From: Candidatus Eiseniibacteriota bacterium
GTDB lineage: Bacteria > Eisenbacteria > RBG-16-71-46 > JABDJR01
Reading direction: 5' to 3'
Assembly: GCA_963783375.1 (NCBI GenBank)
Contig: CAWANH010000029.1
Coordinates: 576,001 to 640,000 of the forward strand
DNA length: 64,000 nt
In this document: positions 2,765 through 41,700 of the stretch, in pieces
Layout of the letters: each line of letters begins with the position of its first letter
How positions within the stretch are numbered: position 1 is the stretch's first letter
Notes under the pieces: model-generated
Told to the model about the DNA's origin: nothing
Seen by the model: only the letters and a program-made list of their open reading frames with translations
The model's database searches: none
Program-made: the position numbers and the translations under genes

Positions 2765-3145
2765 CTACCAGGAGGTCTCTTCGTCCATGCTCTGATCGAA
2801 CGCCATGACCCCGCCGAAGTCCTCCTTGCGGTCCTCGTCGGTCTTGGCCATGAGGCCCACCTCGATCAGGTTGTATACCACCTCGCCCACGTCCTCGCCC
2901 CGCTTGAGGCCCCAGAAGTTCAACACCGAGCGGGCCATGGGCCCGTACTCCCGGATGGCCATCTCCCGGACTCCCTTGAGGAGTTGCGGCCCGGTGAGAT
3001 GCTCCTTCTCCCTGCCCCGGTGATGGGTGCGCTGGAAGAAATCCAGGGCTGCCTGCACGAAGAAGTAGGCCTCCCGGGCGTAGCGGGTGTCGCGTTCCAG
3101 CACCCGGTCCAGGGTGGCTTCGTAGTCCTCGTCGCTCCCGCTCAT
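2765..3145 (-). CDS. Minf_1886-like conserved hypothetical protein
   Basis: Pattern DTRYAREAYFFVQAAL...HLTGPQLLKGVREMA..EYGPMARSVLNFWG..EDVGEVVYNLIEVGLM..TDEDRKEDF, recognised from memory of this family. Confidence 0.8.
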   Translation of the reverse strand: MSGSDEDYEATLDRVLERDTRYAREAYFFVQAALDFFQRTHHRGREKEHLTGPQLLKGVREMAIREYGPMARSVLNFWGLKRGEDVGEVVYNLIEVGLMAKTDEDRKEDFGGVMAFDQSMDEETSW

Positions 3146-3146
3146 C

Positions 3147-4802
3147 TCAACCCACCACCGATTCCGGCTGCGGAATGGTATCGCTCCAGCTCACGTCGCC
3201 GATGCGGCCGAGGACGGAGTCCCGGCGGAAGTGCACGTCGTCCGGAGCGGGATAGTCCCGGTTGATGTGCAACCCGCGGCTCTCCTTCCTGGCGCCGGCC
3301 ATTCGAAGGATGATGTCGGCGATCAGGGTGATGTTGCGGAGCTCCAGAAGGTCCGGATCCACCTCGAAACGCCGGTAGAACCGCTCCACGTCCTGGCGGA
3401 TGAGAGCCAGCCGCGGTGCGGCGGCGGTCAGGCGCTCGTCGGAGCGCGCGATCCCCAGGTAGTCCCACATCAACCGGCGGACCGCGTCCCAGTTGTGATT
3501 GATGATGACGTCCTCCCGGGGTTGGCCGCTGCTGGGCACGACCCAGGGATCGGCCCGGGGGGGCGGAGAGCCCTCCACCCAGGGGCGCAGATCGTGGGCG
3601 GCCCGGTGTGAGAATACCAGGGCTTCCAGGAGGGAGTTCGAGGCCAGACGGTTGGCGCCGTGAAGGCCGGTGTGCGCCACCTCCCCCACCGCATAGAGCC
3701 GGGGGATATCGGTGGCTCCGTTGAGTCGTGCGCGCACCCCGCCGCACATGTAGTGCGCGGCGGGAACCACCGGGATCGGCTCGGTGGCCGGATCGATCCC
3801 GTAGGAGCGGCACCCCTGGACCACCTGGGGGAACCGCTTTTCGAGGAAGGCGCCCCCGAGGGCGGTGGCGTCGAGCCAGACATGATTCTCTCCCCGGGTC
3901 TTCATCTCGAAGTCGATGGCCCGGGCCACGATGTCCCGAGGGGCCAGATCGCCGCGGGAGTCGTGGGCCTTCATGAACTCCTCGCCGTCCAGGCGGCGAA
4001 GCACCGCGCCTTCCCCACGCAGGGCTTCGGTGATCAGGAATCGCTTGGCCCGGGGGTGATAGAGGCAGGTGGGGTGGAACTGGATGAACTCCAGGTTCGA
4101 CACCCGCGCCCCGGCCCGGAAGGCCATCGCCACGCCGTCCCCGGTGGCGATGTCCGGGTTGCTGGTGTACAGGTACACCTTCCCGCATCCGCCCGAAGCC
4201 AGGACGGTGGCCTTGGCCTGGAACGGGATCACCGAACGGTGGTCGGGGGTGAGGACGTAGGCCCCCCAGCAGGCTTCTCCGTCCTCGGAAGTGCCCCGGG
4301 ACATGCGCGAGGCGAGGATCAGGTCAACTGCGAAGAAGTGCTCCAGCATGGTGATGTTGCCGCGGGCGGCCACCGCGGCCAGGAGCGCCTTCTCCACCGC
4401 GGCCCCGGTGCGGTCGGCGGCGTGGACGATGCGTCGCTTGGAGTGGCCGCCTTCGCGACCCAGCTCGAGGTTCCCGTTGCCGGCGCGGCTGAACTCGACC
4501 CCCATCTCCATCAGCTTCCGCACCAGGGGGGAACCCTCTTCGACCACCATCTGCACCACGTCGGGGTGGCAGAGCCCCGCCCCCGCGATGAGGGTGTCCC
4601 GGGCATGGAGGTCGGCGTGGTCCTCGGGATCCAGGACCGCGGCGATCCCCCCCTGGGCGTAGTTGGTGTTGGACTCCGCCCGCTCCTTTTTCGTGATCAC
4701 GGTAACCGAGCCCCACTGGCTGGCTTGGAGAGCGCACCAGAGGCCGGCCAGTCCCGAGCCGATGATCAGGGTGTCGGTGTAGCGGGGGGCTTCGATCACC
4801 AT
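3147..4802 (-). CDS. nadB: L-aspartate oxidase
   Basis: Motifs IIGSGLAG, SNTNYAQGGIAAV, REGGHSKRRIVH, EFIQFHPT, LITEALRGEG, AAHYMCGG and GLHGANRLASNSLLE. Confidence 0.96.
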   Translation of the reverse strand: MVIEAPRYTDTLIIGSGLAGLWCALQASQWGSVTVITKKERAESNTNYAQGGIAAVLDPEDHADLHARDTLIAGAGLCHPDVVQMVVEEGSPLVRKLMEMGVEFSRAGNGNLELGREGGHSKRRIVHAADRTGAAVEKALLAAVAARGNITMLEHFFAVDLILASRMSRGTSEDGEACWGAYVLTPDHRSVIPFQAKATVLASGGCGKVYLYTSNPDIATGDGVAMAFRAGARVSNLEFIQFHPTCLYHPRAKRFLITEALRGEGAVLRRLDGEEFMKAHDSRGDLAPRDIVARAIDFEMKTRGENHVWLDATALGGAFLEKRFPQVVQGCRSYGIDPATEPIPVVPAAHYMCGGVRARLNGATDIPRLYAVGEVAHTGLHGANRLASNSLLEALVFSHRAAHDLRPWVEGSPPPRADPWVVPSSGQPREDVIINHNWDAVRRLMWDYLGIARSDERLTAAAPRLALIRQDVERFYRRFEVDPDLLELRNITLIADIILRMAGARKESRGLHINRDYPAPDDVHFRRDSVLGRIGDVSWSDTIPQPESVVG

Positions 4803-38293: not shown

Positions 38294-39667
38294 TCATACC
38301 ACCCCGGCGTTGACCAGCCCGGGGCGGGCCAGAAGTTCCGGTGGGGGCGGGGCCACCTCCCCTCCCACCTCGATCTCGCCGCGACGAACGAGACGCTCCA
38401 GGGCGGTGACCACCTCGGGGTCGAACTGGTCCCCGGAGCAGCGCCGCATCTCGGCCATGGACTCCTCCAGGGTCAGGGCCTTCCGGTATACCCGGTCCGA
38501 GGTCATGGCGTCGAAGGCGTCGGCGGTCATCACGATGCGGGCGCCCAGGGAGAACTCCTTGGCCGGCAGGTTGTGGTAGCCGCGGCCGTCCAGCCGCTCG
38601 TGGTGGAAGCGGACCAGGGGGGCCACCCGCCGGAACGCGCGCACCTGTTCCAGGATGTCCGCTCCGAGGCCGGCGTGGAGGCAGATCCGCTCCCGCTCCT
38701 CGGGGCTGAGACGGCCCGGCTTGAGGATCAGGTCCCGCTGGGACATCTTGATCTTTCCGATGTCGTGGAGGAGCCCGCCGTACTCGATCCGCTCCACCTC
38801 CCGCTCGGAGAGCCCCAGCTCCCGGGCCAGGACGGCGCTGTACTTGCTCACCCGCTGGGAGTGCTGACGGGTATAGGGGTCGAACTCATCGATGACACTG
38901 GCCAGCACCCCGGCGAAATCGAGAAGATCGCGTTTGGTCTCGATGTAGAGCTTGAAGCTGTACCGGGCCAGGAGCAGGGGGAAGATGAAGAGCACGACCC
39001 CCCAGGTCCCGAGCCCGAAATAAGCCACCGCCACCGCCGCCCCGAAGGGGAGCGAGGCCACCATGTGAAAGATGGTCCAGATGTAGTTGACCTGCCAGAC
39101 CTGCCACGTCTTTCGTCCCTCGGAAAGCGCGATGACCAGGCTCACGATCATGGTGTTCAGCGCGTAGTAGCTCATCCCCATGGCCACGATCGGCAACAGG
39201 ACGTGGGGAAAGCCGAGGGGCTGTCCGGGCACCCCGCCCAGAACCTGGTACACCCACCCCGCCACCATCACCGTGCCCGCGAAGGCGCAGGCGTTGAAGA
39301 TGGCTTTGTGGAGCGGGCGGCGCTGAACGCCGAGCTGCAGGAGCATGGTGGCCGCGAACTCGGCCAGGGCGGTGGGAAGCGGTCCCAGGATGAGGATGCC
39401 CGCGTAGTCCAGGGTCGAGGACACCGTGATGAACCCGCCTCCCGGCAGGTTGACCGGAGCGGCGTCGGTGACCACGATGAGGGCGAACCAGAGGAGAAGG
39501 AGGAACGGAGAGGTTCCGGCCAGGTCGGGCAGGTGCCAACCGAGCAACGTCAACCCCGCGGCCACGATCAGCCCGTAGTAGGCGCGAAACCAGCGGGAAG
39601 CCCCCGTCGGCGCCCCCAGCCGTGAAGGCTGCTGAATGGTGATGCCCTCCACGCTCGCGTCAAGCAT
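38294..39667 (-). CDS. Membrane-bound HD-GYP domain phosphodiesterase with multi-TM sensor domain
   Basis: About 7 hydrophobic helices, then DPYTRQHSQRV, LLHDIGK, HHERLDGRGYH and ADAFDAMTSDRVYR. Start uncertain (39667 or 39691). Confidence 0.9.
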   Translation of the reverse strand: MLDASVEGITIQQPSRLGAPTGASRWFRAYYGLIVAAGLTLLGWHLPDLAGTSPFLLLLWFALIVVTDAAPVNLPGGGFITVSSTLDYAGILILGPLPTALAEFAATMLLQLGVQRRPLHKAIFNACAFAGTVMVAGWVYQVLGGVPGQPLGFPHVLLPIVAMGMSYYALNTMIVSLVIALSEGRKTWQVWQVNYIWTIFHMVASLPFGAAVAVAYFGLGTWGVVLFIFPLLLARYSFKLYIETKRDLLDFAGVLASVIDEFDPYTRQHSQRVSKYSAVLARELGLSEREVERIEYGGLLHDIGKIKMSQRDLILKPGRLSPEERERICLHAGLGADILEQVRAFRRVAPLVRFHHERLDGRGYHNLPAKEFSLGARIVMTADAFDAMTSDRVYRKALTLEESMAEMRRCSGDQFDPEVVTALERLVRRGEIEVGGEVAPPPPELLARPGLVNAGVV

Positions 39668-39763
39668 ACCCCCCCGATCCGCCCCCCCCATCGGGGCGCG
39701 GTTCCGGAGGGCTCGGGCTGGTGACGGCAGAAAATGTTCCGGCCGAGCACCCCTACGCCGGGT

Positions 39764-39826
39764 CTACATCCAACCGGATTTTCCCTCGAAAATCACGGAC
39801 ATCAGGTCCAAGAGAAGCTCCCACAT
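39764..39826 (-). CDS. Unannotated 20-aa peptide MWELLLDLMSVIFEGKSGWM
   Basis: The minus strand reads AAACAAGGAGCAAAGCC-ATG TGG GAG CTT CTC TTG GAC CTG ATG TCC GTG ATT TTC GAG GGA AAA TCC GGT TGG ATG TAG. AAGGAG RBS at 7-nt spacing in an A-rich leader; below the ORF-track length cutoff. Confidence 0.7.
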   Translation of the reverse strand: MWELLLDLMSVIFEGKSGWM

Positions 39827-39876
39827 GGCTTTGCTCCTTGTTTAGAGGAATCTGAGGTCAGGGTCGCCATCGGTGG

Positions 39877-39906
39877 TTCGCTTCGCTCGTTCGCTTGCTT
39901 GGCTTG
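39877..39906 (-). repeat. Short degenerate 4-5 nt tandem repeat in the peptide leader
   Basis: The minus strand reads CAAGCCAAGCAAGCGAACGAGCGAAGCGAA (AAGC/GAAC/GAGC units). Confidence 0.5.
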
Positions 39907-39934
39907 TATACGGCTCTGGGTCGGGTGTTTCTCC

Positions 39935-40696
39935 TCAGGGCAAGGATGTCGGCCGGATCTCGTACTCGACCGGCTCCCGGTAGCGGAGCCGGCCCAGAAT
40001 GCGGTTCAGGGCGTCCAACGTAGCATAGACAACCGACTGCTGCAAATCGTGGCTGACCGGACACGATCCGGTCAACGTCTTCTCCGATCTATCTTTATAG
40101 AATTTGACCGCAACCACCACCACGTCCTCTCCGCCCAGTTCCAGGATCTCCATGTCGGTCAGGGAAAACACGTAGGTCTCGTCCACGAAGCGCTCCACCG
40201 CCTCCAGGGCGGCCTGCCCGATGAGAAGCGGGACCTGCCGGCGGGAGTTGGACCCCGCCGCCTCCCCCACGGTTTCCCGGTCTCCCAGGGACAATTCCAC
40301 CCGGGCACGGCAGGAGGCCTGGTCCAGTCCCACCGTCACCCCCACGAAGCGGAGGCGGATGGCGGCGGGTTCCTCATCGATGCGCAGGGCGGGCAGGGTG
40401 AGCACGTTGGGGAGACGGGGAGGCTCGGCGGCCGGCGGCTCGCCGCCGGTATCGCGCTTCTGAGCCACCGAGATCTTGCGGTAATCCACGTCCATCTGAT
40501 ACTCGGCGCGGAGCGCGGAGCGCACGTCGCGGACGATCTGCTTGGGCGGGCGCTGCCCGTCAGCCAGGATATTGATCTCGGCGATATCCCGGTCGTCTTC
40601 GGTCAGGGAGATCGAGGCCCGCGCGATATTGCGAAGGCTGAGCAGCAACTTCTCCGCCTCGATCACCCACTCGCGCCCGCGTGAAACGTTGTTCAA
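39935..40696 (-). CDS. Conserved hypothetical soluble protein; C-terminus resembles the LeuA allosteric-domain pattern
   Basis: AAAGAGGG RBS before TTG; N-domain EINILADGQRPPKQIVRDVRSAL...DYRKISVAQ; Pro-rich linker; C-domain LTGSC..SHDLQQSVVYATLDALNR. Confidence 0.8.
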   Translation of the reverse strand: MNNVSRGREWVIEAEKLLLSLRNIARASISLTEDDRDIAEINILADGQRPPKQIVRDVRSALRAEYQMDVDYRKISVAQKRDTGGEPPAAEPPRLPNVLTLPALRIDEEPAAIRLRFVGVTVGLDQASCRARVELSLGDRETVGEAAGSNSRRQVPLLIGQAALEAVERFVDETYVFSLTDMEILELGGEDVVVVAVKFYKDRSEKTLTGSCPVSHDLQQSVVYATLDALNRILGRLRYREPVEYEIRPTSLP

Positions 40697-40728
40697 GCTA
40701 CCCTCTTTGCTTGAAGATCCACCGACGG

Positions 40729-40757
40729 TTTATATCAGACCCCCCCCGGGGAAGCAA
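40729..40757 (-). promoter_or_regulatory. Putative sigma70 promoter for the hypothetical-peptide-HD-GYP module
   Basis: TTGCTT-N17-TATAAA with an extended TG, about 32 nt upstream of TTG 40696. Confidence 0.6.
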
Positions 40758-40797
40758 GCTGATCCCCCCGCAGGACGGGCGGAAGGCGTTCCGGGAC

Positions 40798-41700
40798 TCA
40801 GAATTGCGCCATCTTCCGGACCTCGTGGAAACGGGCCTCGATCTCCTCCCGGGACGCGGTGGCCAGCCGTCCGAGGCTGAACGCCTCCACCGTGAACGAG
40901 GCGAGCACGGTGCCGTAGATCGCCGCCCGGCGGATCTCCGCCTCGCTCCGGCTGTCTCCGCACCCGGCCAGGTAGCCCAGGAACCCCCCGGCGAAGGTGT
41001 CCCCGGCCCCGGTGGGATCGTAGATCAGCTCGATGGGATACGCGGGAGCGGCGAACGTGAACTCGGGGGTCAGGACCAGGGATCCGTGCTCCCCCTTCTT
41101 CACGATCACCATGTCCGGACCCAGGCCGAGGACCGATCGCGCCGCCTTGATGAGGTTGGGCTCGCCGGTGAGCATCCGCACTTCCTCATCGTTCAGAAGC
41201 ACCACGTTCACCCGGCGGAGGGTGGCCATGAGGTCGTCCCGCGACCGCTCGATCCAGTAGTTCATGGTGTCGAGCACCACCAGGGAGGGGTCGCTCACCT
41301 GGTCCAGGACGCTTCCCTGAAGTCCCGGGTGGATGTTGGCCAGGAAGACGTACTTCGCCGCCCGGTAGGATTCAGGGAGCACCGGCTTGAATTCGGCAAA
41401 TACGTTGAGCTGGGTGTCCAGGGTGGTCCTGGTGTTGAGGTCGTAGCCGTACTCCCCCGCCCACCGGAACGTGCGTCCCGAGGCGGTCTCCAGACCGCCG
41501 ACGTCGATTCCCCGGTTGCGGAAGAATTCCACGTGTTCCTCGGGGAAATCATTTCCTACCACCGCCACCATCGCCACCGGGGCGAAATGACGCGCGGCCA
41601 CCGCGAAGTAGGAGGCGGAGCCCCCCAGGGCGTCCTTGGCCTCCCCGAAGGGGGTCTTCACCGAATCCAGGGCCACCGACCCCACCACCAGTACGCTCAC
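40798..41700 (-). CDS. PfkB family carbohydrate/nucleoside kinase
   Basis: Motifs VVGSVALDSVKTP, LGGSASYF, DTMNYWI, VKKGEHG and DPTGAGDTFAGG. Confidence 0.92.
   Translation of the reverse strand: MSVLVVGSVALDSVKTPFGEAKDALGGSASYFAVAARHFAPVAMVAVVGNDFPEEHVEFFRNRGIDVGGLETASGRTFRWAGEYGYDLNTRTTLDTQLNVFAEFKPVLPESYRAAKYVFLANIHPGLQGSVLDQVSDPSLVVLDTMNYWIERSRDDLMATLRRVNVVLLNDEEVRMLTGEPNLIKAARSVLGLGPDMVIVKKGEHGSLVLTPEFTFAAPAYPIELIYDPTGAGDTFAGGFLGYLAGCGDSRSEAEIRRAAIYGTVLASFTVEAFSLGRLATASREEIEARFHEVRKMAQF

Follow-up and report, generated by a model that had tools for sequence, protein, structure and literature searches.

A conserved cassette of a LeuA-regulatory-type gene, a structured RNA, a small peptide and a MASE9-type HD-GYP gene in Candidatus Eisenbacteria, Bacillota and Armatimonadota

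Introduction

Most of the membrane sensors which feed c-di-GMP enzymes, MASE9 included, have no input known to us, and we know of no peptide signal that is read directly by a cyclic-dinucleotide phosphodiesterase; none was found in the literature either. The MASE9 domain was defined in a survey of HD-GYP proteins, which predicted ligand binding within the membrane, and the word "peptide" did not occur in the available part of that text (10.1101/2021.11.05.467447). HdgA of S. venezuelae was membrane-bound, poorly expressed and without phenotype, and in the available part of the account its authors blamed a likely missing activating signal for the lack of phenotype (PMC6205966).

The window analysed here is a stretch of 64,000 nucleotides from a genome of the Ca. 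Eisenbacteria phylum (G000). Within a housekeeping stretch (argS, pfkB, then purM) it held a membrane HD-GYP gene as part of a cassette which, judged from sequence, has four parts: a two-domain LeuA-regulatory-type gene, a structured RNA, a peptide and the MASE9-type membrane HD-GYP gene. The two flanking genes were:

39935..40696, minus strand: P0002, 253 aa, with an N-terminal alpha-beta-beta-alpha-beta domain and a C-terminal LeuA/citramalate-synthase regulatory-type domain; candidate RNA-binding regulator
38294..39667, minus strand: P0001, membrane HD-GYP phosphodiesterase gene (HD_5 E 1e-29, above the cut-off) with a MASE9-like N-terminal sensor; alternative start at 39691

Small ORF and its ribosome site

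39826-39764, minus strand: small ORF of 20 codons plus stop, with an acidic amphipathic N-part and a conserved G-K-S-G-W tail
39839-39834, minus strand: Shine-Dalgarno (SD) sequence AAGGAG with a 7-nt spacer to the ATG; open here by prediction, whereas most relatives have it paired with an anti-SD

The first-pass annotation had pointed to a hidden small ORF, and its sequence, coordinates and residue counts were confirmed on the minus strand. It lies between P0002 (40696-39935) and P0001 (39667-38294). The ORF ran from ATG at 39826 to TAG at 39766-39764, was preceded by the leader TTCCTCTAAACAAGGAGCAAAGCC-ATG, and was translated into MWELLLDLMSVIFEGKSGWM, which contained 4 Leu, 2 Trp and 3 Met. 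The ribosome-binding context had been counted among the clearest in the window; by pairing energy it only ranked 689 among 4095 possible starts, and it was one of 11 once an A/T-rich context was also demanded. The 3' end of the genome's own 16S rRNA carried the standard anti-SD. The genome contained 472 cases of AAGGAG followed by 4-12 nt and ATG, of which 97 led into ORFs of at most 45 codons. The ribosome site and the short ORF by themselves are thus at chance level.

It was conservation in relatives, and not the ribosome-site context, that showed the ORF to be real. ORF, frame and ribosome site were all kept at the same place in 6 of 7 same-family genomes, and the seventh (G005), which was without the ORF, was also without the adjacent HD-GYP gene. 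For the 7 closest sequences, the synonymous-substitution check which had been proposed along with the ORF gave a pN/pS of 0.23 in frame, while the shifted frames gave 1.58 and 6.48; among 36 distinct 16-codon relatives the values were 0.51 in frame and 0.80 and 2.99 shifted. By this substitution pattern the 20-codon ORF is a gene under purifying selection.

Tail and N-part of the peptide family

The peptides were tallied at 149 loci, which overlapped in genomes, with a filter on the tail that makes the tally circular for the tail itself; 121 loci were positive, giving 92 distinct peptides. The first 30 loci were inspected without this filter, and a ribosome site with an ORF of 16-40 codons lay downstream in nearly all of them, the exceptions being L009 and L025, which lacked this arrangement, and L012, which stopped at the contig edge. 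The 28 loci missed by the filter were 16 loci of families that had lost the HD-GYP gene, 3 with variant tails (L011, L118, L127), 4 at contig edges and 5 without peptide (L009, L025, L049, L138, L140).

The tail had the consensus G-K/R-x-G-W, the Trp being followed by 0-5 further codons. Among 64 distinct genes all synonymous codons occurred at G, K/R, A/S/G and G, with third positions varying freely, so the tail has been selected as protein. Tandem tails were found in two lineages, G-K-G/A-G-W in three copies in L052 and L053 and two in L027, and G-G-H-x-W-W in three copies in L014 and two in L013; the copies differed synonymously and the spacers between them had diverged, which is the layout of multi-core precursors. 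The tail was kept throughout while the N-part spanned hydrophobic to acidic-amphipathic forms and shrank to three residues, so the N-part appears dispensable. Lengths went from 8 to 49 residues, the shortest peptide being V/M-K-M-G-K-A-G-W in L060, whose cassette was otherwise intact. Double-glycine leader peptides have a GG cleavage site and a linked C39 peptidase transporter. GG preceded the tail in Bacillota and some other lineages, but not in this genome, which reads E-G-K there and had one C39 match elsewhere, unlinked to the cassette. The peptide matched no Pfam or NCBIfam family, and the Bacillota members reached E 0.15-0.26, below threshold, against Phr and signal-type models.

At slightly under an even chance, the peptide is a precursor acting in trans, its tail being the MASE9 ligand and its synthesis being under RNA-level control by P0002. 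The G-K-S-G-W tail would bind the MASE9 sensor of the neighbouring HD-GYP enzyme and alter c-di-GMP turnover, and the role of the variable N-part would be limited to bringing the tail to the membrane, by a signal-like hydrophobic stretch in Bacillota and by an acidic amphipathic helix in this genome. Peptide output would be set by the RNA around the ORF: P0002 would bind AGCG words beside the ribosome site, and P1, a helix enclosing the ORF, would define and protect a short message or serve as a conditional stop. A precursor with an active Trp-containing tail had been one of two earlier suggestions for this ORF; it fits the comparative data (tail kept through synonymous changes, repeats, shrinkage of the N-part), and the signalling itself stays a prediction. 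This reading, with its putative export, cleavage and tail binding by MASE9, would also be consistent with the basic start, hydrophobic stretch and short aromatic end of the Bacillota peptides, and with the available parts of the published accounts, in which MASE9 is expected to meet its ligand inside the membrane (10.1101/2021.11.05.467447) and the signal of HdgA is likely missing (PMC6205966). Against the trans-acting precursor, neither the 8-residue form nor the acidic leaders are Sec signals, and the tail is nearly constant (G-K/R-A-G-W) across a large family, whereas quorum pheromones are usually more strain-variable.

The uncut peptide might instead remain within the membrane or at its surface, a small subunit which binds MASE9 and tunes the enzyme, as does MgrB, a small membrane regulator of PhoQ. 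We consider this unlikely. The 19-residue hydropathy of 1.4-2.1 in Bacillota and several other lineages (L142, L148, L149 and others) and the co-loss with MASE9 described below would agree with it, and export machinery would be unnecessary; but the peptide of this genome had three acidic residues and a 19-residue hydropathy of 0.63, 36 of the 92 distinct peptides had 16 residues and one had 8, too short for a membrane span, and repeated tails with acidic spacers would be hard to place in one anchored helix. The variation of the N-part and the repeated tails argue against a plain transmembrane subunit in this lineage, and also against stop-coupled stalling.

Structured RNA around the ORF

39879..39895, minus strand: three AGCG words (AGCGAACGAGCGAAGCG), candidate protein-binding sites
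39940..39957, minus strand: 5' arm of P1, overlapping the last codons (R-P-T-S-L) of P0002
39738..39756, minus strand: 3' arm of P1, just past the peptide stop and followed by a short U-rich tail at 39737-39728

Neither the structured RNA around the ORF nor the tie to the upstream gene had been part of the first-pass annotation. Of 92 distinct leaders, 91 had at least three AGCG words in the 130 nt preceding the start, versus 142 of 1840 control windows (range 3-5 words, exactly four in 58 leaders), as had 22 of 26 Bacillota leaders versus 18 of 520 control windows. A double-AGCG pattern occurred in 91 of the 206 phylum genomes, mostly at the cassette; the off-cassette matches were scattered (5/41, 2/13 and 0/15 genomes in families f9, f15 and f16) and comparable to a reversed-pattern control.

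P1 linked a site about 120 nt 5' of the start with a site 3-76 nt past the stop. The duplex in the window had -33.1 kcal/mol with one bulge, a perfect helix of at least 8 bp was present in 90 of 118 cassettes, and in 38 of 92 leaders the best helix outscored all 20 shuffles. In alignments made only of cassettes selected for the presence of P1, two-sided changes were seen at its pairs: A-U 12 / G-C 9 and A-U 17 / G-C 4 in one alignment, and A-U 18 / G-C 15 / G-U 11 / U-A 3 in an alignment of 47 sequences. The 5' arm was coding in this genome and intergenic in Bacillota and others, so it has been kept as RNA or DNA sequence and not as protein. T-rich tails followed P1 on its 3' side and were strongest in Bacillota.

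In 91 of 117 cassettes the ribosome site of the peptide was predicted to be paired to a greater extent than after shuffling of the leader, while that of this genome was predicted open (0.65 unpaired versus 0.56 in shuffled). The anti-SD stem had no two-sided change in the 47-sequence alignment, so the evidence for it is predicted accessibility. Local folding of the 291-nt region was unexceptional (z -1.19), and no sigma-70-like promoter was found in 39600-40900. Rfam models did not match the element, either in the window, where the single match was a chance one (E 3.4), or at 6 loci. Nothing relevant was found in the main texts of three surveys of RNA motifs (PMC11109978, PMC8632094, PMC6429828), and one supplement file of PMC8632094 was likewise without a match; the supplement of PMC11109978 could still list the motif.

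In L023, L024, L055 and L048 the RNA-peptide element lay at least 300 nt from the P0002 stop, with a TTGAC-containing promoter-like sequence before it, which suggests that the element is on its own transcript there. In addition, G000 contained repeats of about 120 nt, rich in GAGCG(A/G)AGCG words and palindromes, in at least 5 copies (C28 19411, 19681, 246171 and 1024031; C29 1192324), which are possibly REP-like or further targets of an AGCG-binding factor.

The element might work in cis, translation of the ORF or stalling on the Trp tail deciding the formation of P1 and the U-tail, and with it HD-GYP expression. P1 encloses the ORF and T-rich tails follow it, the ribosome site is predicted to be sequestered in most cassettes, and even an 8-residue peptide could still work inside the ribosome. 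Against it, the stop lies 3 to 76 nt from the 3' arm of P1, 0-5 codons follow the Trp, and the internal repeats are away from the stop. What lies between peptide and HD-GYP gene speaks against it as well: the peptide was kept despite a strong terminator before the HD-GYP gene in the G-G-R-N-D-W group of the sister phylum, despite some 4.5 kb inserted at this position in G206 of that phylum, and in L047 with purM downstream. The terminator and the insertion make amino-acid attenuation unlikely and argue against pure cis control, which we regard as rather unlikely. The second earlier suggestion, a Leu/Trp/Met leader peptide controlling HD-GYP translation, is not supported either, with Met9 replaced by Leu and Trp2 by Val in close relatives. 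A peptide acting in trans is the reading to which such indifference to position would correspond.

Between the terminator and the HD-GYP gene, 7 of 12 matching loci, from about 4 distinct genomes, had a motif TGAT-N15-GCCGATR, which is sigma-28-like by what we take to be the sigma-28 consensus:

L090, 4938-4963: sigma-28-like motif
L093, 4946-4971: sigma-28-like motif
L100: sigma-28-like motif
L230: sigma-28-like motif

Proteins encoded by the flanking genes

P0002 had no Pfam or NCBIfam match, and its comparison with the sequences of solved structures gave E 0.27 or worse. A single-sequence structure model was poor (pLDDT 53), with an uninformative fold search, and a model built with an alignment of 103 sequences reached pLDDT 82. 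In the latter model the C-domain matched LeuA by Foldseek (E 7e-6) and 3f6g with Z 9.9 and rmsd 2.9 over 109 aligned residues, with weaker matches to dsRNA-binding domains, and the P0002 homologue of L142 hit PF08502 at E 0.0009, below the cut-off. As modelled, the C-domain is the (beta-beta-beta-alpha)2 regulatory fold of LeuA, and amino-acid binding at a dimer interface is predicted by analogy. The N-domain had a common fold, like transporter C-domains, BolA and acyl-CoA ligase lids (Z 7-8.6), with R49, R56, D57 and D71 invariant. RNA binding by P0002 is our inference.

The N-terminus of P0001 matched MASE9 (PF20972) at E 0.0023 with 18.3 bits, below the cut-off of 24.3, and its L142 homologue at E 0.006. 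The motif HHERLDGRGYH (38575-38607, minus strand) had GYH in place of the GYP of the HHExxDGxGYP motif; orthologues had GYP in 99 of 105, GYH in 5 and GTH in 1. P0001 is predicted to degrade c-di-GMP, and the GYH may mean that activity or substrate differs in this lineage. When the two-tail peptide of L027 (37 residues) was modelled in complex with the MASE9 domain, the score was 0.01 (mark 0.32), which speaks neither for nor against binding. Two further MASE9-like genes were present in G000 (C29 ~1156300-1157500, minus strand; C28 ~431400-432900, plus strand), and no small peptide gene was seen 5' of either.

Distribution and co-occurrence

Of 61 relatives, 46 had a P0002 homologue, as had 155 of the 206 genomes of the Ca. 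Eisenbacteria phylum and 131 of 301 genomes sampled from Bacillota (the phylum of G209, a Clostridiaceae record). The cassette was found in these two phyla and in Armatimonadota. Among the best 30 Bacillota loci, 27 had the peptide, one was cut by a contig end and 2 had none; the peptides were of 24-29 residues and began with basic residues, which were followed by a hydrophobic stretch, in most cases by L-A-G-G-A, and at the end by 3-7 residues with aromatics. The Armatimonadota loci L142 and L149 had the cassette plus a second HD-GYP and DUF5317, and the sister phylum had the G-G-R-N-D-W tail in 8 of 9 genomes. Two cultured species, Natranaerobius thermophilus and Subdoligranulum variabile, carried the cassette, with the peptide unannotated in their records. 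Although DUF5317 lay downstream of the cassette in Armatimonadota and N. thermophilus, it was dropped as a universal processing partner for the Ca. Eisenbacteria phylum, being present in only 1 of its 206 genomes. No description of the cassette was found in literature from which subscription journals were mostly missing, and the multi-phylum cassette is undescribed so far.

The Bacillota loci L175, L179 and L184 had two or three P0002 paralogues, one pair in tandem, and two of these paralogues had, in place of the cassette, a downstream gene which we take to be spoVS-like.

It is highly improbable that the ORF encodes a type I toxin-like membrane peptide, made from a message that represses itself and has its 5' and 3' ends paired, with the neighbours there by accident. 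Type I toxin messages do have a short hydrophobic ORF, a sequestered ribosome site and long-range end pairing, as here, but this peptide gene is single-copy, fixed in position across three phyla and strictly co-lost with its flanking genes; it has no Rfam, Pfam or NCBIfam match, and an 8-residue form exists.

The co-loss was seen in four families (f15, f8, f14 and f16), where P0002 was kept and no MASE9 orthologue was found genome-wide at E 1e-40 (0/13, 0/1, 0/6 and 0/15). All 16 sampled loci of these families lacked an HD-GYP gene and a core peptide, P0002 being followed directly by purM in most of them. Six core-pattern matches in 3 of 5 P0002-only genomes were set aside, as the matched strings were not SD-led in-frame short ORFs. 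In family f9 it was P0002 that was absent (0/41), and the MASE9 gene was kept in 40/41; no peptide tail or AGCG tandem was found in 20 of 20 regions 5' of that gene, and 5 of 5 genomes were without the core pattern. The f9 sensors formed a long-stemmed group within the peptide-linked sensors in a midpoint-rooted tree without support values.

The MASE9-HD-GYP gene of f9 (L193-L212) followed pfkB, with a site TGGCAC-N5-TTGC in 20 of 20 loci, which resembles what we take to be the sigma-54 consensus.

The peptide-RNA element was kept essentially only where both flanking genes were present, as would be expected of a link between them; this pattern represents a handful of events, the kin genomes being not independent. 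Two exceptions were found. G010 had both flanking genes without a recognisable core tail. G013 had the peptide before purM and no HD-GYP gene in the cassette, and here a histidine kinase with a fused MASE9-like domain lay about 8 kb upstream of the peptide cassette (L219 ~2770-4267). Co-loss of peptide and HD-GYP, and a peptide that persists with its MASE9-like partner 8 kb away, are consistent with the trans-acting precursor, while f9 and G010 speak against it: the sensor of f9 shows that the peptide is not obligatory for the sensor.

P0002 and peptide were both absent from f9, so P0002 is equally available as receptor. The tail might stay in the cytoplasm and fill the LeuA-type pocket of P0002, switching its binding to AGCG as feedback on its own RNA. 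In its favour, the C-domain has the fold with which LeuA and citramalate synthase bind Leu or Ile, export could be dispensed with, and repeated tails would be multivalent ligands of a dimer. R49, Q53 and D71 were kept in 50%, 0% and 20% of 20 P0002 orthologues without cassette, though these are related genomes and not independent events. Against it, P0002 persisted in about 34 genomes of the four families without MASE9 orthologue, with no peptide at the 16 sampled loci, and the hydrophobic signal-like N-parts of Bacillota suggest the membrane as destination. We hold peptide binding by P0002 to be quite improbable, and return to the tail as ligand of MASE9.

A wider circuit may be drawn around the trans-acting precursor, in which a released Trp-tailed peptide acts through MASE9 on a membrane c-di-GMP phosphodiesterase and P0002, as a new RNA-binding protein with an amino-acid-sensing LeuA-type domain, controls its synthesis via AGCG repeats in the structured RNA, the whole being ancient and shared by several phyla. 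This extension is doubtful; if true, nutrient state, cell-cell signalling and c-di-GMP would be linked without any transcription factor.

Comparison with known systems

Short ORFs within structured RNAs are known from trpL and TnaC. The cassette shares this layout, but has no run of regulatory codons, Leu, Met and the first Trp varying among close relatives, and no fixed stop-to-stem spacing; nor does the ORF stand directly before one regulated gene, as a terminator, an insertion or another downstream gene follows it in several lineages. The CsrA/Rsm RNAs have repeated short words beside a sequestered ribosome site, as has the cassette, whose word is AGCG instead of GGA and whose RNA has no Rfam match.

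The agr system (AgrD, AgrB, AgrC) also combines a tiny precursor gene, an amphipathic leader and a multi-pass membrane sensor alongside. In the cassette, however, the output would be a cyclic-dinucleotide phosphodiesterase and not a kinase, a conserved RNA wraps the peptide gene, and the peptide has neither a Cys/Ser ring core nor a C-terminal follower. No agr-type model of NCBIfam or Pfam matched the precursor, the adjacent sensor was an HD-GYP protein (a MASE9-like kinase only in G013), and AgrB (PF04647) had no match in G000 (97% complete) and none in the cassette. The lack of AgrB here, DUF5317 in a single phylum genome and leaders that are not Sec signals weigh against the trans-acting precursor.

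MgrB and SafA, regulators of PhoQ, are likewise encoded by small protein genes tied to a membrane sensor, but many cassette peptides cannot span the membrane and some have repeated tails. Phr/Rap, SHP/Rgg and ComS/ComR resemble the cassette in their precursors of 20-30 residues with a hydrophobic N-part and a short aromatic C-terminal core, the Bacillota members being weakly similar to Phr leaders (E 0.15). By analogy with Phr, SHP and ComS, export and cleavage to a short C-terminal core would be expected; no RRNPP receptor was adjacent, the neighbours being P0002 with its LeuA-type domain and the membrane HD-GYP protein P0001.

The closest enzymes are the MASE9-HD-GYP phosphodiesterases TM1467 of T. 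maritima and HdgA, with which P0001 shares the architecture of a multi-pass sensor, here with a weak MASE9 match, and an HD-GYP domain, and from which it differs by GYH; the available parts of their accounts mention no peptide, RNA or upstream partner (10.1101/2021.11.05.467447, PMC6205966). Set beside these systems, the cassette offers a concrete, synthesisable candidate input of 4-8 residues for MASE9, adds a conserved RNA motif that Rfam lacks and a family of candidate RNA-binding proteins, and is open to testing in two named cultured carriers.
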